This document shows positions 9,869 to 42,277 of a stretch of 64,000 nt of DNA, one piece after another; position 1 is the stretch's first letter; the number at the start of each line of letters is the position of its first letter. Location: assembly GCF_046524175.1 (NCBI RefSeq), contig NZ_JBEFZF010000002.1, positions 107,304 through 171,303 of the forward strand, in the 5' to 3' direction. The translations under genes were made by a program, and so were the position numbers. The notes under the pieces were generated by a model. The model was not told the origin of the DNA. It saw only the letters and a list, made by a program, of their open reading frames with translations, and made no database searches. The stretch is from Spongiivirga sp. MCCC 1A20706. Its GTDB lineage: Bacteria; Bacteroidota; Bacteroidia; Flavobacteriales; Flavobacteriaceae.

Positions 9869-11224
9869 TTAGAAATTTTTCTTAAACGACCTTGACAATG
9901 GTATGATTTCTTTATTCATTAGAACTAGGTAGTCCTTATTTATTTGTTTGATAAAGTTAGAGTTGACTATAAATGATCTATGACATTGAATAAAGTTTGG
10001 TGGTAGCTCTTCTTTGATTTTGCTTAACTTCCCCCTAACGAAATGGTTTTTCCCATTAGAAGTGAAAATATTCAAGTAGTGGTCATCTGACTTGAGATAG
10101 ATCAAATCTGAACTATAAATCTTGGTTTTATCTTTTAGAACCACATGATTTTTTATCACAATATTTTTAAGCTCATCAAGTTTTTGCAAGGTTTCGAATT
10201 TTTCAATTTTTAATGACCTAGACTTATTTAGATATTTTTTGTATCTGACAAAAACGATGATTAAAACAATGCTGATTGTAACCATTATTAAGAAAACAAA
10301 AATGTATCTATTCCTAAGGCGATTAATATTGTTATAAGCCTTTAAAAGACTTGCTTGGTTTCCTAAGTTTGGAGTTGTTCCGTTTTTTTTTAGTTCTTTC
10401 AATTCTAAATTTCTCAGGGCAATAGTCTTTTTTAGAAAGAAATACGCACTATCAATTTTATTTATTTTTTCATAGCTTTCTGTTAACCATTTTAAAGATG
10501 TTATTTGAACTGATTTCACCGTATCACGAGCTATATGTTTTTTTAAATATGGAACGGCTTTTTCATATTGTTTGTTAGCTAGATAGTTTAACCCAGTGCC
10601 CAAATCAATACTTTTTATTCCAGAATACTCATACCAAATAGGGTATTGTTCATATATTTCAGCTGCTATTGAATAGTGATGTGCTGCATTATCATACTCT
10701 TTAAGCCAATGGGATAAGTAGAATGCCAAAAGTTCATGATACATCCCCCTCGCAACACTTTTTTCACCGGAATATTTAAGCATTTGATCAAAACTTAATG
10801 ATACTTTTTCTTTACTGATACCGTCAGTATAATTCTCGGTAAAAATCAAACTAACGACAACAATTTTATAACTACGACGAAACTCTTCTGGTTGGAAATC
10901 ATAATATTTATTATTGGGAGAATAAAGAGTTGGTGAGTTTATTTTAAACCAAACTACTTTGTTCAGTGAATCACGAACTGAGTCTGTTATGTAATCTATG
11001 TTATTGTCTAAATATCCAAGGAGGTCAGAATACCTTAGACTTATTCCATAACCAGAGTTTAATGAGTCTCGTATTTTAAAATAGTCTAAGGAATCCTGTT
11101 GTTTTTTTGTAAGAGTCTTTTGGTTTTGATATGGTTCAACTAACCTTTTTGAATTTAAATTAGTGTTATATAAAACAGATGAAAGAAATAATCCTAAAGC
11201 ATAACCAGTTAGTAACTTAAACAT
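9869..11224 (-). CDS. Transmembrane one-component regulator: periplasmic TPR-like sensor region, one TM helix, cytoplasmic LytTR DNA-binding domain
   Basis: N-terminal signal/TM. Internal TM IFVFLIMVTISIVLIIVFV. C-terminal DDHYLNIFTSNGKNHFVRGKLSKIKEELPPNFIQCHRSFIVN is the LytTR signature. Confidence 0.75.
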   Translation of the reverse strand: MFKLLTGYALGLFLSSVLYNTNLNSKRLVEPYQNQKTLTKKQQDSLDYFKIRDSLNSGYGISLRYSDLLGYLDNNIDYITDSVRDSLNKVVWFKINSPTLYSPNNKYYDFQPEEFRRSYKIVVVSLIFTENYTDGISKEKVSLSFDQMLKYSGEKSVARGMYHELLAFYLSHWLKEYDNAAHHYSIAAEIYEQYPIWYEYSGIKSIDLGTGLNYLANKQYEKAVPYLKKHIARDTVKSVQITSLKWLTESYEKINKIDSAYFFLKKTIALRNLELKELKKNGTTPNLGNQASLLKAYNNINRLRNRYIFVFLIMVTISIVLIIVFVRYKKYLNKSRSLKIEKFETLQKLDELKNIVIKNHVVLKDKTKIYSSDLIYLKSDDHYLNIFTSNGKNHFVRGKLSKIKEELPPNFIQCHRSFIVNSNFIKQINKDYLVLMNKEIIPLSRSFKKNF

Positions 11225-11251
11225 TAAATAAAGTTAGATAATTAATTAAAA

Positions 11252-12910
11252 TCAGTTTTTATTTTTTAGAGACTTAGCTTTCCCTAAGTTATAGGTTAAT
11301 CCAAAAAATTGTCCGATACCAAGCTTTTCAACAGTAGGAATAGTCTCATTACTTGAAAATTGGTATCTGGTGTTTCCATCAGCGACAAATGAATCTTGAA
11401 TTGTAGTTGTTCTACCAACAGATATTCCATAATGAAAAACAAAACGAGACATTTTCCCAACAATGAAACCGCCTCCTAGCAGGAATTGAAATTTTTGTTC
11501 ATCAGTAAACATTGCTCCAAAGCTAAATGTTGGTTTAATCCATGTGCCGGTTCTATAAGATAGGTTGGCAACACTTCCAAAACCATAATTTAGCGAACCT
11601 AAATTTTTTTCATTTATAATTTGATATTCTTCATTTACACCGTTAAATTCTTCTGACATAGTTTGTATTGAGTATTCTTTGTTTGTCAGGGTAGATAAGA
11701 AGACACCAGCGCTGATATCAATTTTAAAACCACCTTTTATCCATATGTTATATTTTTTCTCATCTAAAAACGAGCTACTCTCTTTCTTAGCTCTTCTTTT
11801 CAATGTAAATTCCAATGCGTCAATATTTTTTCCGTCAAACTCATAAGGCAGAGTGTAGTGTTCAGTTTTAAATGAATACAATTTATCAATTGACTTGGAT
11901 GCTAACTCTACCAGAGGGATAAATTTGTTTTTTAGGGTTTCATTAAATAAGCCTGAATACTCTATATTTAAAGTATTTTCAGCCTTATGAGTGACTTTAT
12001 TGGTAGCATCAATAATGGCATCATATCTTTTTTCTAACGAGGTTCTTTTGTCCTTGTGTTTTTCAATAATTAGGTAATCTTTTGCCTCTAATTCGGACAA
12101 ATACAATTCAGCTTCTTTATTGACTTTTCTCATTCGAATGGAATTAGCTTCAATTTGTAATCTAAACCCTCTAAATTTTGCTTTGTTATCTATTTTTTCT
12201 TGCTTTTTTGCCTTATCATTAATTGGCTTTAAATCATTTTGAAGGGTTTCATATTTTTTATTTAAATCTTCTTTTTTTCTCCTATTTTGTTCTAAAGCAA
12301 TTTGTCCTTTTTGAATTTTTTGATTTAACTCAGATATTAAATTTTCCTTATCCTTGATTAATTTTTTGTTAGTGCCAATTAAACTCTGAATTTCAAAGTC
12401 AAAGCTTGTGTATTCAATTAGTTTTGTCTCACTGCTTAATTCTTGATTTCTAACCTTAATCTCTGAGATTTCATCACTCAAATTTGAGACAGTAGTTTTT
12501 AGCGTATCAATCTTCGAAGTGAAAGCCTCTATAGTTGTTACCCCGTTTATGGCTTTCCCTGCCTCTGACTCTTGATCAGTTGGTGAAGTTTTTTTTATCA
12601 AATCAATAACCCCCTCTTGTTTTTTTTCAAATCTTGCTTTTGAGTCTGAAAATAGATCTAAAGTTTTTTTATTGAGTTCATAGGTATATTTAAATGGATT
12701 TGCATTTTTTAACTTGAATGCCAAAAGTTGATTCGTTTTCACACTCAGCTTTTCTTTCAAACAGTCGGCTGAATCGTTTTCAATACAAATACTAGCAAAG
12801 CTATTAACTTTTGGGCTTGCCATGTCTAAAACAAAAACCTTTGTTTCTTGACAATAACTCTGAACACTAAATAAGATGAAAATAACAGACAATGAAATAC
12901 GTATAATCAT
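11252..12910 (-). CDS. Secreted coiled-coil protein with a beta-rich (possible outer-membrane barrel) C-terminus; hypothetical
   Basis: Signal peptide MIIRISLSVIFILFSVQSYCQ, long Lys/Glu heptad-rich centre, Gly/aromatic-rich C-terminal third. AT-rich codon usage. Confidence 0.55.
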   Translation of the reverse strand: MIIRISLSVIFILFSVQSYCQETKVFVLDMASPKVNSFASICIENDSADCLKEKLSVKTNQLLAFKLKNANPFKYTYELNKKTLDLFSDSKARFEKKQEGVIDLIKKTSPTDQESEAGKAINGVTTIEAFTSKIDTLKTTVSNLSDEISEIKVRNQELSSETKLIEYTSFDFEIQSLIGTNKKLIKDKENLISELNQKIQKGQIALEQNRRKKEDLNKKYETLQNDLKPINDKAKKQEKIDNKAKFRGFRLQIEANSIRMRKVNKEAELYLSELEAKDYLIIEKHKDKRTSLEKRYDAIIDATNKVTHKAENTLNIEYSGLFNETLKNKFIPLVELASKSIDKLYSFKTEHYTLPYEFDGKNIDALEFTLKRRAKKESSSFLDEKKYNIWIKGGFKIDISAGVFLSTLTNKEYSIQTMSEEFNGVNEEYQIINEKNLGSLNYGFGSVANLSYRTGTWIKPTFSFGAMFTDEQKFQFLLGGGFIVGKMSRFVFHYGISVGRTTTIQDSFVADGNTRYQFSSNETIPTVEKLGIGQFFGLTYNLGKAKSLKNKN

Positions 12911-13222
12911 GACAATTGTTTTTATGGTTGACTGTGTAAAACTATCTGTGAATCAATGATTAAAACAAAAAAATGTCGTGAATGACACCACAAATGACGT
13001 GAGTGGTATTAAAGAAATAAGAGAGGCTTTGTCTAATATTTTTTTTACAAACTTTTTGAGAGAAAGATGGATTTATAAATAAATCATTCTTACTATTTTT
13101 TAAAATAAATACTTAAAATCAGTAAGTCTTGTCTTCTGACATAAGAAACTGCTAGTAAACAAGAAATGCGTATTTTCTGAATATAAGTAGTAAGTTTACA
13201 TCTGTTCGGTTAATAGGATAAA

Positions 13223-13810
13223 ATGATTAAAAAAGGTAAAATGGATATAGTTGCAGGTGTATTTATATTAGTTGGCACTGCCATTGGGATTTGGGCTAAT
13301 GAAATAAACAAAAGAGAATCTGATAATCTCGAAAAAAAGAATAGTATACTTAGAAAGGAATTAAAAGAAATTTCTGAGGAAAATCTTCGGCTTTCAAAAA
13401 AGATGGAAAACTATGTAGAGTCATCAAACTATTTTAATAAAACTAATTTCTCTTATTTAAAAAAAGATTTCCCTTTGGGTTATACAGTTGTTAAGCAGAA
13501 TGAGGATTTTGATGATTTCGTTCAAGCTTTTGGCGAACATAGAGACTATGAATATTATGGCTCTAGAATATATCGTGATAAGGAAACCCAAGATTATTTA
13601 ATTGTACTTAAAGATTTTAAAATTAATATTAATGGGGTATCTATCTCGGGAGGAGAAACGGGGGTTAAAATTGATCCGGATAATTACAAAGACTATCAAT
13701 TACTTATGCCTCAACAACCTCTTTTAGATGTTAATATGGTAATACTAATGATCGATAGTAAACAAAAGTATACATACGCAATCGGTTTAATACCGAAGAT
13801 AAATAAATAG
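13223..13810 (+). CDS. Hypothetical membrane-anchored protein
   Basis: ORF with an N-terminal TM helix and a coiled-coil segment. No recognisable domain. Confidence 0.45.
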   Translation: MIKKGKMDIVAGVFILVGTAIGIWANEINKRESDNLEKKNSILRKELKEISEENLRLSKKMENYVESSNYFNKTNFSYLKKDFPLGYTVVKQNEDFDDFVQAFGEHRDYEYYGSRIYRDKETQDYLIVLKDFKININGVSISGGETGVKIDPDNYKDYQLLMPQQPLLDVNMVILMIDSKQKYTYAIGLIPKINK

Positions 13811-13845
13811 AATATTTAATATTATTTGGAAGTATGCGTTTAAGT

Positions 13846-15330
13846 TTATTTAAAATCCAAAATCCGAATACACTCATTAATTCTTCCTTCAAGAACTTTC
13901 TTATGTTGCGGATATCCAATATAAAGTTGTTTAGCTATTTCTGCTTTTTCCTTTGCTAACCTGAGACTTTTATTTTTGTTGGATCTCATATAAAGTAAGG
14001 CAAAAGCTAAATAAGAATCTGCTAACCTAGCCGCAGAGTTGACATCAGGTCTTTTGCTATTAATATTAGTTAGAATTTCTATAGCATCTTCGTAAAAAGT
14101 TTTTGCGTTTTTATAGTCATTTAGATCAGTATGAATCATACCTAAAAAATGTAGATTATTTGCATATCCAACCTTATCAAACGTGCTTCTGAGAGGTAAT
14201 ATTTGCTTAAAATATTTGTCAGATTGTAAAAAAAACGATTTAGCTTTCTTAAATTCCTTATTTCCTTTAATTACAATAGCGTAACTAGATAATATTGCAG
14301 CGTATCTTAATTTGTATATATATTCAGATTTATTGGGATAATGATTTAGTATTTTTTCTGCTTTTTTAAAATATACATCTACTAATTCATAATTTTTCTG
14401 ATGACCAAAATGATTTATTGAAGATATAATAGTTGTCATTAGTTCACTAAAATATGTGTTGTTTTTTTTGTAGGCTTTTTCTTTTAGTTTTAGTGCATTT
14501 AGAAGATAATCTTCCTTATTTGTAGCAATTTCAAATTCTATATTTGGGTTATTTAAAAGCGCAAATATATTTTGATTTATTGCCCCTAATTCCGCATCAT
14601 ATCCTTTATTATTATTTTCTTTTTTTAATTTATTATAAATATCTATCGCCTTTTGATAATTATGGAACGATTTTTCACCTAAACCTTTTGTCCTGTAAAA
14701 TATACCTAAATCCCTTAAGGTTTCCGCTTCATTTGCTAAGAGAAAGTTATCCTTATTAGAAATTTTACTAAAGGATGCTAGGGATTTTTTAAGATATGGT
14801 TCAGGATTTCTTTTAGTAGAAGCTAACCCTTGTAGAAATATATGTCCAATATAAGAGTTAGCGATTGCAATAATTTTATGGTCAAAAACTTCCTTTAGAA
14901 CAACTTCAAAAGAACTCAAAGACTCATTATACTCTTCTGAGATAAAATGAGCTATTGCCTTTTGAGTATTTGAAGCATTTTTGGATTTGGATTTTTCGAG
15001 AAATAACTTCAATCCTTTTATATCTAAGTTATATTGATTTTGTATATATATTTCAAATGCTTCATCTGGGTTGTTTATATCTACATCATTTTCTTTGAAA
15101 TATCTTGCTAACCCTAGAAGGGGCTTTAATTCTTTAAGAGTTTTGTCTTGTTCTTGGTTTTTTGTAATACCATTATTTCGATATAAAAGTCCCGCAACAG
15201 CTGCAATTACCACACAAATAAAAATAATCCAACTTAACATTTTTTGATTTTTGCTTGAATTCATAGACACAAATCTAAATAAATTGTTATTAAAATAGGC
15301 ATACAATTCGGTTGCCAGAAAAGTTGACAA
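13846..15330 (-). CDS. TPR-repeat protein with N-terminal membrane anchor
   Basis: TM WIIFICVVIAAVAGLLY followed by multiple degenerate 34-aa TPR-like repeats (..AIDIYNKL.., ..AEKILNHY..). Confidence 0.6.
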   Translation of the reverse strand: MSTFLATELYAYFNNNLFRFVSMNSSKNQKMLSWIIFICVVIAAVAGLLYRNNGITKNQEQDKTLKELKPLLGLARYFKENDVDINNPDEAFEIYIQNQYNLDIKGLKLFLEKSKSKNASNTQKAIAHFISEEYNESLSSFEVVLKEVFDHKIIAIANSYIGHIFLQGLASTKRNPEPYLKKSLASFSKISNKDNFLLANEAETLRDLGIFYRTKGLGEKSFHNYQKAIDIYNKLKKENNNKGYDAELGAINQNIFALLNNPNIEFEIATNKEDYLLNALKLKEKAYKKNNTYFSELMTTIISSINHFGHQKNYELVDVYFKKAEKILNHYPNKSEYIYKLRYAAILSSYAIVIKGNKEFKKAKSFFLQSDKYFKQILPLRSTFDKVGYANNLHFLGMIHTDLNDYKNAKTFYEDAIEILTNINSKRPDVNSAARLADSYLAFALLYMRSNKNKSLRLAKEKAEIAKQLYIGYPQHKKVLEGRINECIRILDFK

Positions 15331-15361
15331 GCTATTAATAGACTGTAAGTAAAGAAATTAT

Positions 15362-15392
15362 GGTCCATGGTTCGAGCCCATGTGGGACCACA
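15362..15392 (+). repeat. Direct repeat of the last 30 nt of tRNA-Met (attachment-site-like scar), followed by a diverged copy of the tRNA terminator
   Basis: ggtccatggttcgagcccatgtgggaccac is identical to 9757-9786. A further ~45 nt is near-identical, including the terminator hairpin at 15400-15432. Confidence 0.85.
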
Positions 15393-15399
15393 CTATTAA

Positions 15400-15432
15400 A
15401 AATCCAATCTAACTCAATAGATTGGATTTTTT
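15400..15432 (+). terminator. Rho-independent terminator (diverged copy of the tRNA terminator)
   Basis: atccaatctaactcaatagattggat hairpin followed by tttttt. Confidence 0.6.
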
Positions 15433-15642
15433 GTTTAAAATAGAAAGCGCCAGTATTGCTACTGGCGCCAACTTGAGTAAGACAGGGGAACTGCAGTTTA
15501 ACCAACCGCATGATAGATCATGGTAAGCGGAATAAGCATCAACATTGCAACGAGCAATACGTTTAATAATCTTACAAAATTTAAAAATCCGATTCGGTAG
15601 AATGTGTTTAACGTGTTCATAATAGTATGTTTTAAAAAGTTA

Positions 15643-17589
15643 TTATTGTCCTATTTGGTTAAATGATGATGTGTCGATTGCATTAGGGTTAGAGGCTTCA
15701 ATTTGAAAAATAGCATCGTTAAAATCGTTGTCTCCGTTAGGTACTGAAATGTCTTCGAATGCAATGACCGTAGACTGACAGGTTTGATCGTAAAACAGAA
15801 TACTTTGCTGTCGTCCGCTTAAATTAAAATTGATGTCGGTGTGTTGAGAATAATATCCATCAGTGATACTTCCGTTTCTCCATCCGTTGGCGATCAGGAA
15901 AAATCCAACTACCGTACCTGATTCAAAACTACCTAGTAATCGCATTGTATTACCTCGAATGAGTCCGCCACCGGATCCTTGTGCCGAAGCATTTGGAAAT
16001 ATGACAGTTTTATCCAGGTCATTTACACTTGCCGGAGGATTATCCTGATTATAGGTATAGTAGCCTAGCACATTTTTATACCCTGCGCCTTCATCAATAA
16101 ATGTTAAGTATAGATCGGTTTCTTCACTTATATATAATTCTTTTACTGGGTTTGTAAAGTACTCGGGATGTGCTTGCATCGCATTTTGTCGTTCCGGAAG
16201 AACATTTTGGTAGATATTAGGGAGTAATGTACTGCACACTTCAACATCTTCTTCCATTCCGTCTGGCACTCCTTTTTCATCATAGGTAGTAACCGTTTTG
16301 TATTCGTCCTTTTCTCTTTTGCGCAGAATTTTGAATCCGCCACCACCTTTGGCAACAAAAACCCATTCACCATCAGCCATGATAAAGTTAGCAGAGGCGT
16401 CATCTTCCTGCATATCCCAGAAAAATACCGGATTTATTTCTTCGCCTTCGACCGTAGGGTGCTTCGCAATAGCAATACCGTCTGCACCATTGGCCATATA
16501 GATATAGTCATTATCGGTAGTAATTCCGTTTGTATTACCAACAACTAGCATTAACCCTTCAGATTCATTTAAGATCGTGCCAGAATTGACATCAACATTG
16601 GCCAAACCATACTTGCCCTTAGCGACATATAGTTGATTACTATGTATTGGGGAAAATTCCATCGTAGATTTACCGCGATATGTTTCTACTACATTTTGAT
16701 GAAAAATGCTGCCTATAGGAAAGCTAGTGGTATTCAATGCATCATTTACATCGGCAACCCTTATAAAAGCCTCATCTCCTGTGATCAGACTTGCTACTTT
16801 CGAGTTGTCGGAATTAAGCGCCAAGTACTTCGCATTGGCATATACTTCGTGGTCTAAGGCATTGAGATTATCCTTATTTAGAATAACGGTACCACCATGT
16901 GTTTTTCCCGAAGTGATATAGATATAATTATCAGTAGAAGCAATACCATTTGCTGAGGCAGAAACTCCTGAGTTTTCAAATACATTTGACAAATTAACCC
17001 GTTTGAAATCGGAGTTGAACTGCCCATTTGTTGTTGTGAGTTCAAATAATTGAGCTCCGTGCACATTATCCGACATGGCAGTCCAAATTTTCCGCAGACT
17101 ATTTGATCCTTCAAAGTCAGACGTCAACGCATTGACATCGGCATTATTAAAGTAAACCTGACTTATTATTTCAGGAAAATTAGGATTGGAAAGATCAATG
17201 ATTTCAACCGCACCCTTGTGTAAATCACCTTGCTTGTGATAGCTTACATATGCCTTGTCGTCAGCCAAGGTAATATGTGTCGCGCTTAGGGTAAACCCTC
17301 CAAGAACCAGAGGGTCTACTTCTGCAACATGCTCCCAGAAGTAATTTTCTTGCGCACCATTTACTTTAGCGGTTGAAAATTTTCCGGTCTTTGTTTTTAC
17401 AACTGGTTTAATAGTGGCAGTTCTATTAATAAAACGCAGCCGTTTTGTTAACTCATTTCTGTCATTGTTTACCGAAAAAGGATTTTCATCGATTGGTGCT
17501 TCAATTAATTCAGCTGTATTTTCTTCTGTACTACAACTTAGGAATCCTATAATAAGGACTATTTTAAATAGTATTTTTACTGTCTTCAT
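15643..17589 (-). CDS. Lipoprotein with LVIVD-type beta-propeller repeats and a C-terminal DUF4114-like region
   Basis: Lipobox IGFLSCS. Repeated ..YIYITSG.., ..YIYMANGADGIAIAK.. motifs. C-terminal GFFLIANGW...DGYYSQ...NDFNDAIFQIE. Confidence 0.55.
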   Translation of the reverse strand: MKTVKILFKIVLIIGFLSCSTEENTAELIEAPIDENPFSVNNDRNELTKRLRFINRTATIKPVVKTKTGKFSTAKVNGAQENYFWEHVAEVDPLVLGGFTLSATHITLADDKAYVSYHKQGDLHKGAVEIIDLSNPNFPEIISQVYFNNADVNALTSDFEGSNSLRKIWTAMSDNVHGAQLFELTTTNGQFNSDFKRVNLSNVFENSGVSASANGIASTDNYIYITSGKTHGGTVILNKDNLNALDHEVYANAKYLALNSDNSKVASLITGDEAFIRVADVNDALNTTSFPIGSIFHQNVVETYRGKSTMEFSPIHSNQLYVAKGKYGLANVDVNSGTILNESEGLMLVVGNTNGITTDNDYIYMANGADGIAIAKHPTVEGEEINPVFFWDMQEDDASANFIMADGEWVFVAKGGGGFKILRKREKDEYKTVTTYDEKGVPDGMEEDVEVCSTLLPNIYQNVLPERQNAMQAHPEYFTNPVKELYISEETDLYLTFIDEGAGYKNVLGYYTYNQDNPPASVNDLDKTVIFPNASAQGSGGGLIRGNTMRLLGSFESGTVVGFFLIANGWRNGSITDGYYSQHTDINFNLSGRQQSILFYDQTCQSTVIAFEDISVPNGDNDFNDAIFQIEASNPNAIDTSSFNQIGQ

Positions 17590-31450: not shown

Positions 31451-32605
31451 CTATTTATTCACCGAAAAAATCTCCTTCAACTGTTTGACTACACCACCGT
31501 TTCCGGTAACACTAATCTCACCAATTTTATCAGCGATTTTTTCTACATACTCCATTTCCTTTAACTTGAAGAGCATTTCGTTTTCTTCCATAAGCCTTGC
31601 TGTATTTAGCAAACTTCTGGTAGAAGCAGTCTCTTCTCGTCGGGTAATGACGTTGGCCTGTGCTCTTTTCTGGGCAACAAGCACCTGGTTCATAATATCC
31701 TTCATCTCACCCGTAAGGATGACATCTCGAATACCAATGCTCAATACGCCAACACCTAATTTTGCGATGTCTTTTTTAACAGTTTCCAATACGGCATTGC
31801 CAATACCTTCTTTCTGTTCCAACAATTCGTCCAAGGTGTATCCGCCTATGTAGGCACGCAATACCAATTGCAAAGCAACATACAATTGCTTTTCGTAATC
31901 TTTATTGCTCAACAAAGCTTTTTCAATATCGATAACCTTGTATTGTGCATACAAACTCATTCTAATTGCAGCCTTGTCTTTTGTCAACAATTCCTGACCA
32001 GCAATTTCTAATTGTCGCATACGTAAGTCGGCTTTTGCAACTTTAATTGATGTACTGTTTTTCCAAAACCTGTAGACACCAGGCCCAAGTGTTTTTTCAT
32101 ATTTGTCATCAATTATAAGTACGGCCTTTTCGTAAGCGGCAACCTCAAACATGCGCACATATTGGTTGACCTTGTAGGTACTCAAAGTCGTCTTATCAAT
32201 CTGCTCGGTAATGTAAATTTTGTTCAAATCTGCAATTACGTAACTGTGGTCAATAAGCCCCTTCCAAAAAAAGTATCTACCAGCGGTAAGCACGTCTTTA
32301 AAATTACCATTTTCAAAACGCAATGCAATGTTACCATCCTTAACTTCAATAACTTCAAGCATGGCCTCCAACTCCGTATCTTTTAATAAGAGTTCAATCG
32401 CAATGGGTGCTAAAAATTGTTTAGCAAGATTAAATATCATCACAGAGTTATTCAATGGCAGCCAATGCGTACCAGCTTTAACTAACTTACGATAATCACC
32501 TCTTTTAAAAACTAAACCAATGTTTCCTGCATTAATTCTTACTCGTTTCATCGTTTTCATTTTTTGGTTTGATAATTCAAACCTGTTCAACATTAATAAA
32601 GCCAA
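31451..32605 (-). CDS. SPFH/band-7 (stomatin/flotillin-like) domain protein with N-terminal triple repeat
   Basis: C-terminal VAQKRAQANVITRREETAS...coiled coil typical of SPFH. N-terminal repeats GDYRKLVKAGTHW / GNFKDVLTAGRYFFW / GPGVYRFW. True start probably MKTMKRV. Confidence 0.7.
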   Translation of the reverse strand: MALLMLNRFELSNQKMKTMKRVRINAGNIGLVFKRGDYRKLVKAGTHWLPLNNSVMIFNLAKQFLAPIAIELLLKDTELEAMLEVIEVKDGNIALRFENGNFKDVLTAGRYFFWKGLIDHSYVIADLNKIYITEQIDKTTLSTYKVNQYVRMFEVAAYEKAVLIIDDKYEKTLGPGVYRFWKNSTSIKVAKADLRMRQLEIAGQELLTKDKAAIRMSLYAQYKVIDIEKALLSNKDYEKQLYVALQLVLRAYIGGYTLDELLEQKEGIGNAVLETVKKDIAKLGVGVLSIGIRDVILTGEMKDIMNQVLVAQKRAQANVITRREETASTRSLLNTARLMEENEMLFKLKEMEYVEKIADKIGEISVTGNGGVVKQLKEIFSVNK

Positions 32606-32666: not shown

Positions 32667-33151
32667 CTTGACAAAGACATGCGCTGTAACGGAGGCTATG
32701 TCATATTTTTGGGCGTTTCCATGATACTTGTTTAATTGCTCGATCATGGTCGGGCCTGCCTGTCTGCAGACAGGCTTTCGCCGGTCGCTTTTTTAATTTA
32801 AAAACAGCATAAATAACCCATCTTTCCATCGCGGAAATCTCATTTTTTGTATAATCGCTACAATCAGTATTTAATAGTTGAGTTGGCAGCTGATATCAAA
32901 TTAAAACCCTATATCGTTTGCAAAGCCGCATACTAAAAAGTAATTGCTTAAACCATCAATAAAATGGCTATTTCAGGCATTTTCAAGACTGTTTTTAAGG
33001 TGCTTTAACCTAAAAAACCGAGTTACAAATGCTGTTCTTTTTTGCTGTTTTATGCCCAGCGTGGCTTGGAGACCAGTTTTACAAGATGGTCAGCTTAAGT
33101 TGCCATATCCTTAATATGGTGCGTTTACCAATTTCGCCATTCCGATTTTTC

Positions 33152-33295
33152 GGAAGCAGGACTCGAACCTGCAAGTCTTCAATTGTTCTAACCAAACTGA
33201 ACTATCTCAAAAATGGATTGAGAGTGGGATTCGAACCCACGACCTATTGACAGTGACTGTTAACTACAGTCTAGGTATCAAGCCTCGTTGCATAT
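33152..33295 (-). other. Two tandem tRNA-like 3' fragments (T-arm plus acceptor 3' strand) without matching 5' acceptor strands
   Basis: On the minus strand: gcagg-ttcgagt-cctgc and gtggg-ttcgaat-cccac T-arms. The second also has a gactg-tagttaa-cagtc anticodon-like hairpin. No complementary 5' acceptor strand found by eye. Confidence 0.4.
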
Positions 33296-33561
33296 AAATT
33301 CATCATACAAAAACTGCAATGATTTATACATTGGTGCTATACCGAAACACCTAACCGGACTTAACTTGATATATTCCCGCGAAGGCGGGAATCTCTTATG
33401 TCCCGCAATCACGATTTACTTTTTCATTTTTTCAAAATCCCTGCAACACTCCTCGTTGCTGCAGGGAATACTAGTAAACCCTTTACCAGCTTAGGTTTAC
33501 CCTAACAACACCACAAACCTCTACATTAACTACGCAATTATTGTGCGTAGTTAAAAATTAT

Positions 33562-33636
33562 TGGTATCTATGGGGAATCGAACCCGTTCATCTTAGAAGA
33601 TATACTTCTCGTGCTAGCCAGTACACTATAGATACC
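33562..33636 (-). pseudogene. tRNA-like element with perfect 7-bp acceptor stem but aberrant anticodon loop and T-arm (probable tRNA pseudogene)
   Basis: Minus strand: ggtatct...agatacc acceptor, D-stem gtgt/gcac. Anticodon stem agaag/cttct with a 5-nt loop tatat (or 4-bp stem with loop gtATAtc). T-stem has only 3 GC pairs. Confidence 0.4.
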
Positions 33637-33705
33637 ATTTTAAAGCTTCCCTCTTTAATAAAGATGGGAATGAATTCAAATTCAGCTTTGCTTAAGAAAG
33701 GGGAG

Positions 33706-34242
33706 TTAAAGGCTACTTTTTTTTGCCCTCTTCTTCTTTTTGGGCTTTCTTTTTTTCTTAGCCCCCAACTTCTCTTTTACTCGGCTTATCTCATCATTAA
33801 CAAAGCGCTTAAAGTGGTTGTTCAAAGCCGACTTTTTAGCCTTTTTGAATTGAACTAAAGCTTCTTTAAATCGCTTTTGTACTTCAAAAAGCTGGCCCTG
33901 TATCAACATCAAATATACTTTGTCAACTCCCTTAATTTTCATTGCAAAGTCTAGTAATTTTTGAGCTTCCTTTAAATCTTCATTTCGGATTAACGTGTAT
34001 AAATAATCCAGATAAATACTTGGATTTTCTAAGTTGCTCGCCATGGCCTTTTCAAAACATGATTTTGCCAATTCATATTCATTTAAATCATTAGCATAGA
34101 CTTTGCCTAATAAACAAAGGGCTTGTACGTTTTGATCGTCATATGATAATGCATAATTCAATGCCTCCATCGTTTCCTCTAAATCATAGGGGTAGGCTGC
34201 CAACGCCTTAAATAAATATGGGTTATGTATTAAATTTTCCAT
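33706..34242 (-). CDS. TPR-repeat protein with Lys-rich C-terminal tail
   Basis: Three to four TPR-like units (AKSCFEKAMASNLENPSIYLDY...). C-terminal KKRKPKKKKRAKK. Confidence 0.55.
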   Translation of the reverse strand: MENLIHNPYLFKALAAYPYDLEETMEALNYALSYDDQNVQALCLLGKVYANDLNEYELAKSCFEKAMASNLENPSIYLDYLYTLIRNEDLKEAQKLLDFAMKIKGVDKVYLMLIQGQLFEVQKRFKEALVQFKKAKKSALNNHFKRFVNDEISRVKEKLGAKKKRKPKKKKRAKKSSL

Positions 34243-34253
34243 TTTGTTATCAT

Positions 34254-34934
34254 TTAAAACTCGATTTCATCATTTAAAAGCTGATGAATCGGGTATTGTT
34301 TTAGCGTTCTTATTTTTTGCTCGTCAATTCTTCTTCGTTTTCTCTTTTGATTTATACTCCAATAGTCTTTCCAACCATCCACTCGTTCGCGAGCTTCATA
34401 AAATCCTGATTTTAAAAATCGCTGCCATATCAAATCGATTTCACTTTCTATTAAAGGATCAATTCGTTTGCTATGCGTCACATAGGCTCGGGTAAATTTT
34501 ATCCTATAACTTCCCAGAGGCAGATTTACATAAAACCGTAATCGAAGTTTTTTCTTCTCATTGTAATACTTAAAAGGAACGCAAAGTCGTTTAGCTGCAT
34601 CGCTCAAGCGGTTGTATTGTTTACGGCTAATGGTGGGTAAATTTTTATTTGAAATATATTTACTCGTCATCGCCAACCACTTTTCGTTCGCCTCGTCCTT
34701 TGTTCTTCCCCAGACTTGTTTTTCTAAAATTTTATAAACCTCTTTTATCGCATCTTCATTTTTGTACGCTTCGACCTCCCGAACAATAATCGCTTCTTTA
34801 AACCAACCGTTTCGTATTGGTTTTTCTAATTCGATATAGCCCAGATCTCTGCGTCTCCAATGAAGCTCTCCCAACCGTTTTAAATCATTTCGAATCTGAT
34901 TTTCGAGCTGTTCTTTTTTGTGTTTCGGTTTCAT
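34254..34934 (-). CDS. Hypothetical basic protein (226 aa)
   Basis: ORF with coding-like composition. No recognisable motif. Confidence 0.45.
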   Translation of the reverse strand: MKPKHKKEQLENQIRNDLKRLGELHWRRRDLGYIELEKPIRNGWFKEAIIVREVEAYKNEDAIKEVYKILEKQVWGRTKDEANEKWLAMTSKYISNKNLPTISRKQYNRLSDAAKRLCVPFKYYNEKKKLRLRFYVNLPLGSYRIKFTRAYVTHSKRIDPLIESEIDLIWQRFLKSGFYEARERVDGWKDYWSINQKRKRRRIDEQKIRTLKQYPIHQLLNDEIEF

Positions 34935-35958
34935 TACAACCGTTCTAAAATTTGTATTATCTAATTTTTATGTTGATGTTTAGACTGATTTATAAACCCA
35001 GAGACACTTTCAAAAGCCTAAATTTTTGACATGAGTTGTCTGGCTTGTTTTTTACTACGAGCACTACTTTTTTAAAATTTGAGTATAAAAAAAGTCCGAA
35101 ACATTCGCTTGGAACACTTCGGACTTTCTACTACCAGAGAATCTGGTTATGGAAGGTGCCGAAGTATCGATCTTGACGTTTTGTCATTTTCTTGTATGTG
35201 ATAAAATCGCATGACTTCGTTTTTAATTTAGTGAAACACTGTTTTGAAAAGCCTTTTTTGGCGTATTCAAAATTGATTGTTGAACTAATCCCACTGCATA
35301 GCGGGATCTCATCCTGTTGTTGAATTTTCAACGGTGCAAATATGAAATCCTTTTTTCAATTATCCAAATAAAATTTTAATTTAATTTGTTGATTTTCAGG
35401 TAGTTAAATTAAAAATGGGCAATAGAAATCCTGTCCGCTTTATAGCAGATAATCGCTTTTTTAGTAACCATTTGTCCATCAATTACTTGACCCAAAAGCT
35501 TGCTTGTTTATGTGTTATTCTTCGTTCGATATTTTTTTATTTTTTATTGCATCAAAATGGATTCCCGATCTGGCAACCCATAAAAAAAGCGTCCAAGAAA
35601 TTGGACGCTTTAGTACTATAATGGTTGGTTTATTTTGTATTCAACTTCGTTTTAATATAGTACTATAACATCCTTGTCCATCTGTATTTACTGATGGAAA
35701 ATCGTTCAGGCAATATGCCCTACGTTCAATGCTATGGTTCTGTATTGTTTTCATTTTTGTTGGTGCAAATATGGTGTTTTTATTTTATTACTCCATAAAA
35801 TTATGTTTTACTTCTTTCCATACCTCTTTTATAAATGGTGTAATTGAAAACTCCTCTTCAGTTTCATCTTCAATTAAACTCCAATAATGAATAGTTGAAA
35901 AATGCAAGAAACATTCCTTAACAAGAATGGTTTTACAGACATCCCAATTTTTCTTTGC

Positions 35959-36204
35959 TTAGTTGGGATATTCAGATATACCATCATCCAATGAAGAAAC
36001 GATCAAACCCATTAGAGTAAATTTTTCGTTATCATCAGATAGTTCATTTTTATATAGTTTTAGAAATTCTTCTATCCTTTGAAAATCGGATACAACTATT
36101 TCCCAATCTTGTTCATTTTTATTCCAATACAAACCAAGCCGTTTAGATAGCTTTTCTTCCGAACTTATACTTGAGTGTCTTACATATTGTTTTGAATAGC
36201 TCAT
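35959..36204 (-). CDS. Small hypothetical protein (about 81 aa) translationally coupled to rtcB (TAAtATG junction)
   Basis: ATG at 36204 lies one nt after the rtcB stop (36208..36206). Acidic, helical. Confidence 0.45.
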   Translation of the reverse strand: MSYSKQYVRHSSISSEEKLSKRLGLYWNKNEQDWEIVVSDFQRIEEFLKLYKNELSDDNEKFTLMGLIVSSLDDGISEYPN

Positions 36205-36205
36205 A

Positions 36206-37639
<1,434 letters not shown>

Positions 37640-37759
37640 CTACTTGTAAAGTCTTATAAATTGACTTATTCATAATTCCAATACAAATGTTATTTTTATG
37701 TACGCAATAGTTTTGCGTAGTTGTACTTTTACATTGTGTTAGTAATATAGATATTAAAA

Positions 37760-38767
37760 ATGGCTCTTAACAAAAATGCACTCATCCGATATAAAACAAT
37801 CGACAAATGCCTTCAAAATATATACAGAAAATGGACTTTAGACGATTTGATCACTGCTTGTTCCGATGCGCTGTACGAATATGAAGGTAGAGAAGTAAAT
37901 GTGAGTAAGCGGACTGTTCAATTGGATATCCAGCTAATGCGAAGTGATAAATTAGGATACAATGCACCTATAGAGGTGTATGAGAAAAAATATTATCGCT
38001 ATGAACATCCAAATTATTCTATTACCGATATCCCAATTACGGAAAATGATATGAACGTCTTATCTGAAACCGTAGAAATGTTAAGACAATTTAAAGATTT
38101 TTCATTGTTTTCTGAATTAGGTGGCATTATACAACGTTTGGAAGATAAGGTATATACTGAGAAGACACATCAATCATCAATTATTCATTTAGATAAAAAT
38201 GAACGCTTGAAAGGACTAGAACATTTGGATGTGTTATACCAAGCTATTTTGAAAAAACTAGTTCTTAAAATATCTTATCAGTCATTTAAGGCACGACATC
38301 CATCCGTATTAATATTTCATCCTTTTATATTGAAGGAGTTTAACAATCGATGGTTTTTAGTGGGTAAAAATGCGGCTGACAAGCCTATTATTACCTTGGC
38401 TTTAGACCGAATAATTTCTATTGACTATGATCTTGAAATCCCATTTTTGAAAGAGGATTTTGATGGGGATTCTTACTATGAAAGCACCATTGGAGTAACA
38501 GTGCTTAATGAAGAACAACTGCAGGAAGTTGTTATTAAAGTCGATCATAAAAACGCACCATACGTGCTTACGAAACCATTCCATAGCTCACAAGAATTGG
38601 TAGAAAAAACCCCGGATAACGGAATTGTTTTTAAGATGAAAGTCCACCTTAATTTTGAATTAGAGCGATTGATACTTGGTTTTGGTGATAGCATTGAAGT
38701 TTTGCAACCAAGACAACTAAGAAAACGAATTCGGAAGAAATTGGAGCGAGCCTTGGAAAAATATTAA
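37760..38767 (+). CDS. WYL-domain transcriptional regulator (wHTH-WYL-WCX; BrxR/CapW/YafY-like)
   Basis: N-terminal wHTH (NALIRYKTIDKCL...RTVQLDIQLMR). Central ...HPFILKEFNNRWFLVGKN (WYL core). Conserved C-terminal extension. 335 aa. Confidence 0.75.
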   Translation: MALNKNALIRYKTIDKCLQNIYRKWTLDDLITACSDALYEYEGREVNVSKRTVQLDIQLMRSDKLGYNAPIEVYEKKYYRYEHPNYSITDIPITENDMNVLSETVEMLRQFKDFSLFSELGGIIQRLEDKVYTEKTHQSSIIHLDKNERLKGLEHLDVLYQAILKKLVLKISYQSFKARHPSVLIFHPFILKEFNNRWFLVGKNAADKPIITLALDRIISIDYDLEIPFLKEDFDGDSYYESTIGVTVLNEEQLQEVVIKVDHKNAPYVLTKPFHSSQELVEKTPDNGIVFKMKVHLNFELERLILGFGDSIEVLQPRQLRKRIRKKLERALEKY

Positions 38768-38823
38768 GTAGATGCAGCTTGGAGCACGCCAATTTCACTT
38801 AACTTACATCAAAAATTTTCGTC

Positions 38824-39201
38824 ATGTTAGTTACAATAATTGATCAAACCATTTCAGGAGAAACCAAAAATCAGATTAAGGTTGATCTAAACGAATCGGT
38901 TACCGCGGAAGATATTATCAAAGCGAGAGTTACTCAAGAAGTAGAAAACTATAACAGCCGAGCTGCAAATGTTTTTAAAGGTTTGGTACAGCCGACTAAT
39001 CGAGAACAACAACTAAACGATAAAAAGTTTAAACCAATAGATGTCGAAAAACAGGTGTACGTTGCTTTGGATGCTTTCCAAAAAAACGGCTTTTTCATTT
39101 TAGTGAATGACCATCAATTGTCCGAAATAGATGAAAAAGTTACCATTAATGAAAACACCGAAATTAGTTTTGTTAAACTAACGCCTTTAGTTGGAGGATA
39201 A
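38824..39201 (+). CDS. Hypothetical 125-aa protein ending in Gly-Gly (possible beta-grasp/ubiquitin-like C-terminus)
   Basis: C-terminus ...ISFVKLTPLVGG-stop. 56 nt downstream of the WYL gene. 4-nt gap to the next ORF. Confidence 0.5.
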   Translation: MLVTIIDQTISGETKNQIKVDLNESVTAEDIIKARVTQEVENYNSRAANVFKGLVQPTNREQQLNDKKFKPIDVEKQVYVALDAFQKNGFFILVNDHQLSEIDEKVTINENTEISFVKLTPLVGG

Positions 39202-39205
39202 TACA

Positions 39206-41791
39206 ATGATAGAGATTTTCAAAAAACTTTTTAAAGACCCTGCATCAGAAACTGATCACCAGTTTTACCGGCTTGTGACAGATATTATAAGAGAGATTAA
39301 AAAATCTAAACAAAGCAATTACTTTTCAGTGTATGATGTGAAGTTTGGGGAACTTTCTGAGTACAAAAAACTCAAAACCGCTAATACGGCCTACAAGAAA
39401 AAGTTTGTTAATTGGCTAGTTAAAGATATTGTTAGGATTGGGAAGCGAAATTCTGGAATGCGCACCTATCCTAAAAAATATGAAAATGATGCTTTTTTAG
39501 TAGAACAAGAGCTACTACCGCTACTGTTTCGGTCTAATCTGGACCTTACAGAAGAGGAATTTATGTACTACTTATCGTATTTTAAAAAGAATAAGTTTCA
39601 TCAACGAAATGACTTGTCGTATTGGCCAATAGGGTTTTTAGTGCAGCAACTAGATCGTCATGTTAAAAAATCTGGTTGTAGTGATACTTTGAAAAAGTAT
39701 TTAAATGAAATGATAACATGGTCTGAACTTGATGCTGGAAAATCATATTATGGATCAGATTTGGGAAAAGTAAAAAGACGAATTGAAGAAATACTATTTT
39801 CTGTAAGTGGCCAAGAGGGAGCGATCAATCCATTTTCATTTAGAAAAGATGAGTTTGGTCAATATGCCAATACGCAATTAGCAAAAAGTAGCGATTCATT
39901 ACAAAAGGTGCTACATCCTGTTTTACATAATTGTATAAAGATTTCAGGTTCTAAACCCACCAAAAAGTTTCTAAAACAGACGGACGAGCTTTTATCAAAG
40001 GAAAATTATAAAGTATATAAAGAGTTTATAGCATCCTTGTGCGAAAAAGTGATCGATCTTGACCCTGTCAGAAAAACCCAGTCATATACATACCAAAATG
40101 AGGAACAGTTTTATTATACATACCAGTTTATTGATGCGAGTAACCTAAATACTTTAAAGGGGCTGGTTTGGACCATGGTCAAATTTCATGATAGTAAATC
40201 GCTTGCTTTATTGTCTAAGTTGACTGAAAAGTGCTTTAAAAAAATTCCAGGAGAGGGTCCTACTGCTGCCGCTCTTGGCAATGCTTGTATTTATGTGTTG
40301 GCAAATACCAAAGGGACTGAGGGTATTGGACATTTGACCGTTTTAAAACAGCGAATCAAACAAACATCAACTAAGAAACTGATTGAAAAATACATTGTAG
40401 AGCTTTCGAACAAGCTTGGTATGAGTAAGTCGGATATAGAGCAAACTGTTGTTCCGGAGTTTGGCTTAGAAAACGGATATAAAATAGTTGTATTTGACGA
40501 TTACAATTTTGAAATTAAAATTGAACGCATCGGTAAAGTCGCCAATGCTTGGATTAAACCGGATGGTAAAATCCAAAAATCAATTCCTGCATTTGTAAAA
40601 AGCAATAAATCACTTTCAAATAGGCTAAAAAAGTCCAAAGCTGAGATAAAGGAGATTCAAAAATTTGTGACCTCGCAGCGAGATCGATTGGATGATTTAT
40701 TTATTGAAGAAAAAGAGATTTCGTATGAAGCGTTTTATCAATATTATTTCAATCATGGTCTGGTCTCTTTCATTGCTAGAAAGCTAATTTGGAGGATTTC
40801 TAAGAAAGAAAAAAGTGTTGATGCAATATGGATTGAAAACAAGTGGGTTGATCAATATAACAAAGAAGTTGATTTTATTGATAACAACTGTACGTTTCAA
40901 CTATGGCATCCTATCTATGCTGAAACTGATGAGGTATTACGTTGGAGACAGTTGTTAATCGATCATCAAATTGTTCAACCACTAAAACAAGCCTTTAGAG
41001 AAATTTACATCTTGACTCCTGCCGAGGTAAATACAAAAACCTATAGCAATCGGATGGCTTCTCATATTGTTAAGCAGCATCAATTTAATACGCTAGCCAA
41101 GCTTCGTAACTGGCAATACCAATTAATTGGCGCTTGGGATCATGGGTCAGATTGTATCGCAAGAAAGCACCTGGATAAATGGAACCTCACTGCGGAATAT
41201 TGGACCAATGAAATTTATGATGATGGTCAAATAAATGATGCTGGGATTTTATTATACATGAGTACAGATCAAGTCCGTTTTACTAAGGGTGAAGAGCCTT
41301 TGGATTTAATTGATGTTCCGAAAATAGTCTTTTCTGAAATTATGCGCGATGTCGACCTTTTTGTTGGAGTTTGCAGTGTAGGTAATGATCCCGAATGGCA
41401 AGATAATGGAGGGCTACCCCAATATAGGGACTACTGGCAATCATATTCATTTGGCGATTTAACGGAAGTTGCAAAAACCAGAAAAACAATCCTCGAAAAC
41501 TTAGTGCCTAGGCTCAAAATTAAAGATGTAAGTACCATAGAAGGCCGGTTTTTGAGGGTAAAAGGAAAACTTCGTACGTATAAAATACACATAGGAAGTA
41601 CCAATATTCTCATGGAACCAAATGACCAGTATTTATGTATAGTACCATCCGGTGTTAAAAATACAACAGACAAATTGTATTTACCCTTTGAAGGAGATCG
41701 AGGATTGTCGGTAATTCTCAGTAAGGCATTTTTATTGGCAGAAGATGATACGATTATTGATCCTACTATTACGAGACAAATCAAAAAATAA
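39206..41791 (+). CDS. Large (about 860 aa) uncharacterised cytoplasmic protein, possibly DUF4132/MolR-like
   Basis: Long ORF with no TM helix or signal peptide. No enzymatic motif recognised by eye. Trp-rich C-terminal half (WDHGSDCIARKHLDKWN...YKIHIGSTNILMEPNDQYLCIVP). Confidence 0.6.
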   Translation: MIEIFKKLFKDPASETDHQFYRLVTDIIREIKKSKQSNYFSVYDVKFGELSEYKKLKTANTAYKKKFVNWLVKDIVRIGKRNSGMRTYPKKYENDAFLVEQELLPLLFRSNLDLTEEEFMYYLSYFKKNKFHQRNDLSYWPIGFLVQQLDRHVKKSGCSDTLKKYLNEMITWSELDAGKSYYGSDLGKVKRRIEEILFSVSGQEGAINPFSFRKDEFGQYANTQLAKSSDSLQKVLHPVLHNCIKISGSKPTKKFLKQTDELLSKENYKVYKEFIASLCEKVIDLDPVRKTQSYTYQNEEQFYYTYQFIDASNLNTLKGLVWTMVKFHDSKSLALLSKLTEKCFKKIPGEGPTAAALGNACIYVLANTKGTEGIGHLTVLKQRIKQTSTKKLIEKYIVELSNKLGMSKSDIEQTVVPEFGLENGYKIVVFDDYNFEIKIERIGKVANAWIKPDGKIQKSIPAFVKSNKSLSNRLKKSKAEIKEIQKFVTSQRDRLDDLFIEEKEISYEAFYQYYFNHGLVSFIARKLIWRISKKEKSVDAIWIENKWVDQYNKEVDFIDNNCTFQLWHPIYAETDEVLRWRQLLIDHQIVQPLKQAFREIYILTPAEVNTKTYSNRMASHIVKQHQFNTLAKLRNWQYQLIGAWDHGSDCIARKHLDKWNLTAEYWTNEIYDDGQINDAGILLYMSTDQVRFTKGEEPLDLIDVPKIVFSEIMRDVDLFVGVCSVGNDPEWQDNGGLPQYRDYWQSYSFGDLTEVAKTRKTILENLVPRLKIKDVSTIEGRFLRVKGKLRTYKIHIGSTNILMEPNDQYLCIVPSGVKNTTDKLYLPFEGDRGLSVILSKAFLLAEDDTIIDPTITRQIKK

Positions 41792-41896: not shown

Positions 41897-41932
41897 CAAA
41901 ACGCCAACTGAATGCAGTTGGCGTCTTTTTTT
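41897..41932 (+). terminator. Rho-independent terminator after the 866-aa gene (probably bidirectional)
   Basis: cgccaactg-aatg-cagttggcg hairpin followed by tcttttttt. A-run upstream allows minus-strand function. Confidence 0.8.
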
Positions 41933-41947: not shown

Positions 41948-42277
41948 TTAGTTTTTTATGACAATTTTTAAAGGAATTCGAAAGACCTGACCATTTTCAA
42001 TCACATTGTAGTCTACTTTTTTATAGTTTAATCTTGCTTTTACAAAACTATCCATTAGTTTGTTTTCTGATTTAACAGAAAGTACGACCAACTCTCTTTC
42101 AGTAGTAATTGTAAAACTAATTACTGCCTGAGCTTCATTATTTTCTAGCTCCATTCTTGGAGATTGCAATAACTTAACGATTTCGTTTCTTAATTGTTCT
42201 GCGGGCTTAGCGTCGTCAGAAGCGATAGCAATGTGTAATCCCAAAGAAACAAGGATAATAAAAGTTAACTTTCTCAT
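41948..42277 (-). CDS. Small secreted hypothetical protein (109 aa)
   Basis: Signal peptide MRKLTFIILVSLGLHIAIA. Confidence 0.5.
   Translation of the reverse strand: MRKLTFIILVSLGLHIAIASDDAKPAEQLRNEIVKLLQSPRMELENNEAQAVISFTITTERELVVLSVKSENKLMDSFVKARLNYKKVDYNVIENGQVFRIPLKIVIKN

Follow-up and report, generated by a model that had tools for sequence, protein, structure and literature searches.

Gene Organization of the Interval

A 64,000-nt stretch of DNA from Spongiivirga sp. MCCC 1A20706 (Flavobacteriaceae), hereafter called the window, was analyzed; it covers positions 107,304 to 171,303 of the forward strand of contig NZ_JBEFZF010000002.1 (assembly GCF_046524175.1). The region under study (window positions 37760–41791) carries three genes on one strand, which encode a WYL-WCX transcription regulator, a small protein ending in Gly-Gly, and a large protein with DUF4132 and DUF7737 domains (Table 1). 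Comparison with related loci indicated that the interval consists of two juxtaposed units, namely the WYL regulator, which belongs with a divergent gene for an RtcB-family RNA ligase, and a self-contained module made up of the small protein, a predicted ubiquitin-like protein (Ubl), and its DUF4132 partner.

The three open reading frames (ORFs) and the strong terminator described in a previous sequence-only reading of this DNA were all present, but the large protein is probably 861 aa long rather than the 866 aa given there. The mechanically called ORF (39191–41791, + strand) runs from TTG 39191 and yields 866 aa, whereas the public annotation (P0121) and the homologues place the start at ATG 39206. 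The ATG start lies 4 nt after the Ubl stop codon, compared with an 11-nt overlap from the TTG start. The terminator, 107 nt past the DUF4132 stop codon, closes the Ubl-DUF4132 pair and also serves a convergent 109-aa gene at 41948–42277.

Table 1. Positions of the features discussed, in window coordinates.
Feature	Position	Strand	Remarks
Ubl gene, predicted beta-grasp protein, 125 aa	38824..39201	+	Free C-terminus ...KLTPLVGG-stop; family without Pfam model
DUF4132/DUF7737 partner, probably 861 aa	39206..41791	+	Pfam; start from public annotation and homologues
Bidirectional intrinsic terminator	41898..41927	.	10–13 bp G+C-rich hairpin, T runs on both strands
WYL-WCX transcription regulator, 335 aa	37760..38767	+	Pfam WYL E 7.8e-10, WCX E 1.3e-15
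RtcB-family RNA ligase, 462 aa	36206..37594	-	Pfam RtcB E 5e-37; divergent from WYL gene
Operator-like palindrome TACGCAATAGTTTTGCGTA	37701..37719	.	RtcB-WYL intergenic; two copies in window

A Predicted Ubiquitin-Like Protein With a Conserved Gly-Gly End

A word-indexed search with the 125-aa protein retrieved 1131 homologues at E ≤ 1e-3, and a profile search of a library clustered at 50% identity retrieved 2006 related clusters; the ORF is therefore not a chance one. When one genome per species was scanned, at least 507 species carried a Ubl relative, nearly all of them Bacteroidota, a scan that is itself biased to this phylum by the peptide patterns used. The best 80 of these at least 507 loci were analyzed; their genes are simple ORF calls, and individual loci are cited below by L numbers.

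Of the 120 closest homologues, 119 had Gly-Gly as their very last residues, within TPLVGG in 92 cases, and the lone exception carried six additional residues past the Gly-Gly, resembling a precursor. The same end was observed in 143 of 149 cluster representatives, with exceptions that resembled frameshifts or truncations. Conservation of the Gly-Gly in orthologues, which had been set beforehand as a test of the ubiquitin-like assignment, was thus found. According to the AlphaFold model (pLDDT 80), Ubl has the element order beta-beta-alpha...beta-beta-beta with a helical insert of approximately 45 residues, followed by a disordered tail of five residues. The model was classified as a beta-grasp fold, and its top structural match was MoaD. 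These results support the earlier proposal that the small protein is a ubiquitin-like beta-grasp protein with a functional-looking Gly-Gly end.

Ubl gave no Pfam match even at E ≤ 5, no NCBIfam match, no PADLOC match, and no match in a sequence search of the PDB. Alignment by hhalign with E. coli MoaD and ThiS gave probabilities below 1%. A sequence link to ThiS or MoaD was therefore rejected, and Ubl is regarded as a new family that joins ThiS, MoaD and ubiquitin at the level of fold only.

A divergent relative was observed on plasmid pFA1 of Fulvitalea axinellae (L169, 3413–3886, - strand). It ends in ...LTFLAGSTY without a terminal Gly-Gly, lies directly upstream of the gene for a giant DUF5724 protein (1–3312, - strand), and is back-to-back with a canonical Ubl-DUF4132 pair. 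This arrangement suggests that the small-protein family may also pair with other large DUF proteins.

The DUF4132/DUF7737 Partner Protein

Pfam analysis of the large protein identified DUF4132 at residues ~454–636 (E 2e-37; 129 bits against a cut-off of 27), as had been surmised from the sequence, and DUF7737 at residues ~756–859 (E 5e-39). The DUF4132 match was obtained in all 31 aligned homologues. In the structural model (pLDDT 77), helical repeats occupy about 400 residues and mixed alpha/beta domains come after them; fold matches were obtained for the helical repeats only, and the N-terminus is predicted to be a variable HEAT-like helical solenoid. Conservation, expressed as the mean frequency of the commonest residue, was 0.34 over the first 150 residues and climbed to 0.79 in DUF7737, with 32 of 106 columns invariant there. 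The invariant polar residues included H568, R598, E599, H620, H795, E829, and D831. C811 was the sole invariant cysteine, and C361 was kept in at least 90% of the sequences.

Neither a sequence-profile search of the PDB nor Pfam at E ≤ 10 added to the known domains. At the same Pfam threshold, no WGR domain was found in the 31 DUF4132 members, which thus differ from the MolR type with its N-terminal WGR domain; BLAST with E. coli YehF, a search of low sensitivity, identified no WGR-domain gene near the pair. DUF7737 was also considered as a candidate UBC-like conjugating (E2) domain, because it shows an H...N...C motif and its elements run alpha-beta4-alpha-alpha. This candidate was set aside for want of support: hhalign against five canonical E2s gave a probability of 0.3%, a weak comparison given that bacterial E2s are generally very divergent, and Pfam gave nothing; neither a UBC nor a Prok-E2 Pfam match was obtained in the partner homologues. 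In the literature library searched, the papers mentioning DUF4132 describe no Ubl, and no match for DUF7737 was obtained among the papers listed.

Two to six tandem DUF4132 paralogues were arranged around one Ubl gene in three loci (L010, L014, and L060). Two copies were present in L010 and L014, and five or six DUF4132/DUF7737 paralogues surrounded the single Ubl gene of Rapidithrix thailandica (L060, 1264–15838). Together with the variable N-terminus, these arrays fit variable target-recognition modules that share one Ubl.

Relatives in Deinococcus radiodurans and Other Bacteria

The pair was also identified outside Bacteroidota. In one metagenome-assembled genome (MAG) labelled Pseudomonadota and in a Planctomycetes MAG, the small upstream ORFs matched Ubl by tblastn. 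The small protein ends in ...LTPLKGG in Novosphingobium humi and in ...TPLVGG on a Chondrinema plasmid. In Deinococcus radiodurans, the gene for a 134-aa protein ending in ...LTALAGG (DRA0165) lies 2 nt upstream of that for a 1626-aa DUF4132 protein (DRA0166). DRA0165 aligned with the Ubl family through the terminal Gly-Gly (hhalign probability 97%, E 6e-11), and the C-terminus of DRA0166 aligned with the partner through the DUF7737 region (~25–27% identity over 380–440 residues). Judged by gene order and these alignments, the drA0165-drA0166 operon is the same gene pair, although DRA0166 is about twice as long as the window protein and control is by DdrO/IrrE, not by a WYL regulator.

According to a published study, drA0165-drA0166 is strongly induced on depletion of the DdrO repressor, and mitomycin C treatment raises the level of the DRA0166 protein in the wild type, whereas an irrE mutant shows no such increase (10.1101/2021.07.07.451423). 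Passages of the study describe the two proteins only as of unknown function and cite E. coli molR as a LexA-regulon gene. As to the surroundings of the Deinococcus pair, a YeeE/YedE family gene and trxC precede it on the same strand and a DUF99 family gene follows (L164, 1–611 and 6089–6673), and molybdate-transport and thiamine genes are located nearby.

The E. coli proteins MolR/YehH and YehI, from the yehF-yehQ cluster, share the DUF4132 domain. Unlike the window protein, YehI has no DUF7737 by Pfam and no Gly-Gly Ubl, and the neighbours of the E. coli genes differ, comprising WGR, MoxR AAA+, VWA, DUF5682, and SWIM genes. YehK, the small protein next to yehI, was rejected as a Ubl, as it ends in ...NQEIE. 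DUF4132 proteins such as MolR, YehI, and DRA0166 are widespread and recur in DNA-damage regulons with no known function, and a Gly-Gly Ubl with its own activating (E1) enzyme would offer an experimentally tractable handle on them.

Gene Coupling and the Associated E1-Type Enzyme

In 78 of the 80 genomes, a DUF4132 gene came directly after the Ubl gene in the same orientation, usually at a distance of 0–20 nt, and the two genes are tightly, probably translationally, coupled. The upstream neighbours in the 80 loci were heterogeneous, with none conserved, and no operator or promoter motif was shared upstream of the Ubl gene across 77 loci.

ORF clustering of the 80 loci revealed a single further conserved neighbour, a protein of approximately 235 aa encoded right after the DUF4132 gene. 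It belongs to the ThiF family of E1-type adenylating enzymes (Pfam ThiF, E 1e-65). The gene was present in 25 loci, corresponding to 24 of the 61 with enough sequence to be informative (~40%), often overlapped the DUF4132 stop codon by 1–4 nt, and occurred in Flavobacteriia, Sphingobacteriia, Chitinophagia, Cytophagia, and Saprospiria. The earlier reading had proposed a search for E1- and E2-like genes near homologues; the former were found in these genomes and not in the window, and E2-like genes were not found as a conserved neighbour in the 80 loci. The module E1 scored best against the ThiF and MoeB models but below the equivalog cut-offs of ThiF, MoeB, MoeZ, and UbaA, indicating that it is a distinct subfamily. 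Compared with an E. coli ThiF reference, it keeps the nucleotide-binding and Mg-binding motifs (GxGGLG, NLxRQ, and DCxDN) and an invariant crossover-loop cysteine equivalent to ThiF C184. It lacks both Zn CxxC pairs and a rhodanese domain.

We consider it probable that Ubl is activated at its C-terminus and acts through the DUF4132/DUF7737 partner. Alternatively, Ubl might be a structural or regulatory subunit whose tail plugs a pocket of the partner and is never activated, with the adjacent E1 serving some other purpose. The near-obligate coupling to the partner, against facultative coupling to the E1, would agree with such a subunit, as would the loci with no adjacent E1 (~60%, the window included); but the DUF4132 stop codon is overlapped by the E1 gene in many genera, a sign of a single operon, and the E1 forms a subfamily of its own, apart from the housekeeping ThiF and MoeB equivalogs. 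Similarly, the most conserved Ubl surface is the internal ALDAFQKNGFF helix-strand segment and not the tail alone, yet the Gly-Gly is strictly terminal in more than 140 clusters (50% identity), the signature of C-terminal activation. A purely non-covalent role is therefore regarded as improbable.

The module resembles the ThiS-ThiF-ThiG, MoaD-MoeB-MoaE, TtuB-TtuC, SAMP-UbaA, and Urm1-Uba4 systems in its beta-grasp protein with a free Gly-Gly, its minimal ThiF/MoeB-type E1 in the loci that have one, and the absence of E2, E3, and peptidase. The coupling of the Ubl gene to its partner is also tighter than that to the E1, as in the ThiS/MoaD-type systems. ThiS is coupled to ThiG in ~80% and to ThiF in ~20% of cases (Iyer et al., PMC1779556), a pattern mirrored by the strong partner coupling and weaker E1 coupling of the Ubl module. 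It differs from these systems in the lack of sequence similarity between Ubl and ThiS, MoaD, or ubiquitin, in the insert of ~45 residues, in an E1 without Zn CxxC pairs or rhodanese domain, and in a HEAT-DUF4132-DUF7737 partner in place of a known sulfur-accepting enzyme.

This likeness raises the alternative of a sulfur carrier, in which the E1 would make a C-terminal thiocarboxylate on Ubl and the partner, like ThiG, MoaE, CysM, or TtuA, would take the sulfur and thiolate a small molecule or nucleic acid without any tagging. The coupling pattern, the structural match to MoaD, the best scores of the E1 against the ThiF and MoeB models, the retained equivalent of ThiF C184, and the absence of peptidase and E2 are all in line with it, and the D. 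radiodurans pair is located just downstream of a sulfur-transport-like YeeE/YedE gene and trxC. On the other hand, no sulfur-mobilising gene is conserved with the module, and the partner has only one invariant cysteine (C811) and one kept in at least 90% of sequences (C361), with no PP-loop, radical-SAM, or known sulfurtransferase signature by fold search or Pfam. DUF4132/DUF7737 relatives without Ubl would be odd if the thiocarboxylate were an obligatory substrate, and the variable N-terminus and paralogue arrays are more like target recognition than a metabolic enzyme. A sulfur-carrier function is rated as rather unlikely.

In the four loci that follow, occasional neighbours of an ADP-ribose- or conflict-like type were observed, none of them conserved; they were read from sequence without a family scan. 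An apparent ADP-ribosylglycohydrolase gene lies 12 nt after the DUF4132 gene in L072 (7394–8431), a DarT-like protein is encoded upstream of the pair in L046 (7141–7788), and apparent SUKH/SMI1-type proteins are encoded in L057 (10892–11614) and L010 (7301–7930).

Assignment of the WYL Regulator

The sequence-only reading had assigned a wHTH-WYL-WCX architecture to the regulator and had placed it, as a BrxR/CapW-like protein, at the head of a defence operon. The WYL and WCX domains were recovered by Pfam; the N-terminal helix-turn-helix gave only a sub-threshold HTH_11 match (E 0.12). In a set of 80 metagenomic loci with WYL orthologues (61–79% identity), an RtcB gene of one of two subfamilies was divergent upstream in 61. 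None of the 80 contained a Ubl, DUF4132, or E1 gene downstream, where inspection extended up to 6 kb as far as the contig allowed. Conversely, among the 80 Ubl loci, a WYL gene was present in five and an RtcB gene in six. These results indicate that the WYL regulator belongs to the divergent RtcB RNA-repair operon and that its position ahead of the Ubl pair is a local arrangement only, so that neither the supposed linkage of the pair to WYL regulators nor the defence-operon assignment was upheld. WYL regulators of this type in Flavobacteriaceae are better read as regulators of RtcB (RNA repair) than as markers of defence operons. The window RtcB itself scored below every NCBIfam cut-off, and its orthologues in L016, L041, L049, L057, and L073 were 72–77% identical.

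The palindrome TACGCAATAGTTTTGCGTA overlaps a Bacteroidota-type -7 box, TAGTTTTG, located approximately 45 nt before the WYL start codon, and its pattern was found twice in the window, where 0.02 occurrences were expected. Of 76 orthologous WYL loci, 20 had the form ACGCAAT-N4-TTTGCGT at about -44 to -57; a total of 40 matches occurred in 716 kb, and 22 of these fell in the 250-nt segments examined at the orthologous loci. The WYL protein probably binds the palindrome overlapping its own -7 promoter box. The regulator resembles BrxR/CapW, PafBC, and DriD in its WYL and WCX domains, its divergent orientation to the likely target operon, and the palindrome over its own promoter; it differs in that its partner is RtcB, not a defence operon, and in a wHTH without profile confirmation. 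No terminator was found between the WYL and Ubl genes, and read-through is thus possible. A TAATTTTG box at 38650 could equally be the pair's own promoter.

Two RtcB subfamilies adjoin the pair in three architectures. In the window, L016, L041, and L057, the WYL gene stands between the pair and a divergent RtcB gene, and in L049 and L073 the genes for RtcB, Ubl, and DUF4132 follow one another in the same direction. L018 has an RtcB of the other subfamily (28% identical to that of the window) directly upstream of Ubl, with the E1 downstream; the mechanically called RtcB and Ubl ORFs overlap there. This minority pattern is suggestive of a functional connection.

A phage-defence function, in which a Ubl-DUF4132 system would be repressed by a BrxR/CapW-like WYL regulator until infection, was also evaluated. 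Ubl-based bacterial defence systems such as Bil and CBASS Cap2 are known, and the module shares with Bil, CBASS Cap2/Cap3, and 6A/6E-MBL the combination of a Ubl with an E1-type adenylating enzyme. Those systems, however, include an E2, either separate or fused to the E1, and a JAB peptidase or deubiquitinase (DUB); none of these is conserved with the module, and the match of the module E1 to the 6A-MBL Cap2 model was weak (E 1e-13; cut-off 320 bits). The WYL-WCX regulator without an intervening terminator, the paralogue expansion in L060, and variable contexts with some toxin/antitoxin-, restriction-, or SUKH immunity-like neighbours (read from sequence without a family search) speak for defence; the orthologue counts given above connect the regulator with RtcB instead, and the characterized homologue is a member of a DNA-damage regulon. 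Membership of a known defence system was rejected, as no PADLOC match was obtained for Ubl, the large protein, RtcB, or the 226-aa ORF beyond RtcB (see below), and no relatives were found on IMG/VR viral contigs. A defence role is hence considered very improbable. Of the defence or stress system originally proposed, the stress part is retained through the Deinococcus homologue and the defence part is not. The DdrO/IrrE regulon, LexA control of molR, and the RtcB neighbourhood together indicate that the setting points to nucleic-acid damage rather than phage defence.

Proposed Mode of Action

Our preferred reading, held tentatively, is that Ubl is activated by an E1 and takes part in covalent tagging without an E2, together with the DUF4132/DUF7737 partner, in a response to nucleic-acid damage. 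The E1 would adenylate the terminal glycine of Ubl and probably hold Ubl on its invariant crossover-loop cysteine; in Spongiivirga, such an E1 would have to be encoded elsewhere. As in Urm1, SAMP, and TtuB, no classical E2 would be needed to pass activated Ubl to the obligate partner. Covalent tagging is favoured for the next step; the DUF7737/DUF4132 core would serve as the ligase platform or the acceptor, the presumed target would be picked by the variable HEAT domain, and the module may act within the response to nucleic-acid damage. We lean slightly to covalent tagging because the N-terminus is variable and recognition-like, paralogues occur in arrays, and some DUF4132 relatives have no Ubl.

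Several observations weigh against this proposal. No E1 was found in the 64-kb window by tblastn, and about 60% of the related loci have none adjacent. E2, JAB/DUB or other deconjugating peptidase, rhodanese, and cysteine desulfurase were all absent as conserved neighbours by ORF clustering of the 80 loci, and the idea of an E2-like DUF7737 had no support from hhalign (probability 0.3%). Likeness of Ubl to ThiS, MoaD, or ubiquitin was not found at the sequence level by Pfam, hhalign, or PDB search. RtcB linkage was observed in only 6 of the 80 Ubl loci. Furthermore, no Gly-Gly Ubl was found beside the distant DUF4132 proteins E. coli YehI, an Acetobacter plasmid protein, and a Nonomuraea protein, which suggests that the core activity of the partner may not depend on Ubl.

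With approximately 2000 clusters at 50% identity and at least 507 species, this large unannotated Ubl family would join the few bacterial Ubl systems that operate with an E1 only. More broadly, though this is doubtful as a whole, the pair and the E1 might constitute an unrecognised E2-independent tagging or thiocarboxylate pathway for DNA or RNA damage, with DUF7737/DUF4132 as a new ligase or acceptor and the HEAT domain picking the damaged target. If true, this would provide the first biochemical function for the large DUF4132 (MolR/YehI/DRA0166) superfamily and, beyond the Pup system, a counterpart in bacteria of damage-induced ubiquitin-like signalling.

Other Features of the Window

Beyond RtcB, further genes of the same strand (-) follow. 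A small ORF (35959–36291) overlaps the RtcB 3' end and is kept in L085 and L120. The 226-aa protein without a family match (34254–34934) adjoins RtcB in L016, L057, L073, L094, and L109, and is followed by a TPR protein (33706–34242). Some related loci that possess the 226-aa and TPR genes have a second RtcB paralogue, here called type B (28–30% identical), which adjoins the 226-aa gene in L016, L073, L094, and L109, with none in the window. Between the 226-aa gene and the end of the RtcB operon, approximately 1 kb (34935–35958) contains no ORF longer than 70 aa, and a search of Rfam gave only a weak Phe_leader match (E 0.009). This segment may be the scar of a deletion or may encode a non-coding RNA.

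Past the TPR gene, the RtcB-side gene set ends in a cluster of degenerate tRNA-like pieces (33100–33640, - strand). ARAGORN called a tRNA-Tyr with an odd ATA anticodon at 33562–33636, Rfam matched a tRNA at 33148–33211 (34 bits), and a sub-threshold match to YrlA, a Y RNA-like element, was obtained at 33177–33248 (33 bits against a gathering threshold of 69, E 1e-4). The second copy of the operator-like palindrome lies between these pieces (33531–33549). At the same position in orthologous RtcB/WYL loci, arrays of genuine tRNA genes were present on the - strand. The Zobellia array (L041, 11–582) comprises Glu-ttc, Pro-tgg, Asp-gtc, Tyr-gta, Cys-gca, and Ser-gct, and those of L120 (40–364) and L109 (2297–2465) contain Ser, Asp, and Tyr tRNAs and Glu and Asp tRNAs, respectively. 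The combination of RtcB with spare tRNAs suggests a locus that answers tRNA damage such as anticodon-nuclease attack. In its RtcB with a dedicated regulator and its tRNA-like or Y RNA-like elements at the operon end, the arrangement resembles the RtcR-RtcBA and Rsr-YrlA operons of Proteobacteria; it differs in having a WYL protein instead of the sigma-54 CARF activator RtcR, in that neither RtcA nor Ro/Rsr was seen, and in the low YrlA score.

Farther along the window, an SPFH/Band-7 protein is encoded at 31451–32605 (- strand). The G+C content of positions 10001–16000 is 0.29–0.31 compared with ~0.36 elsewhere, which may mark a foreign island.

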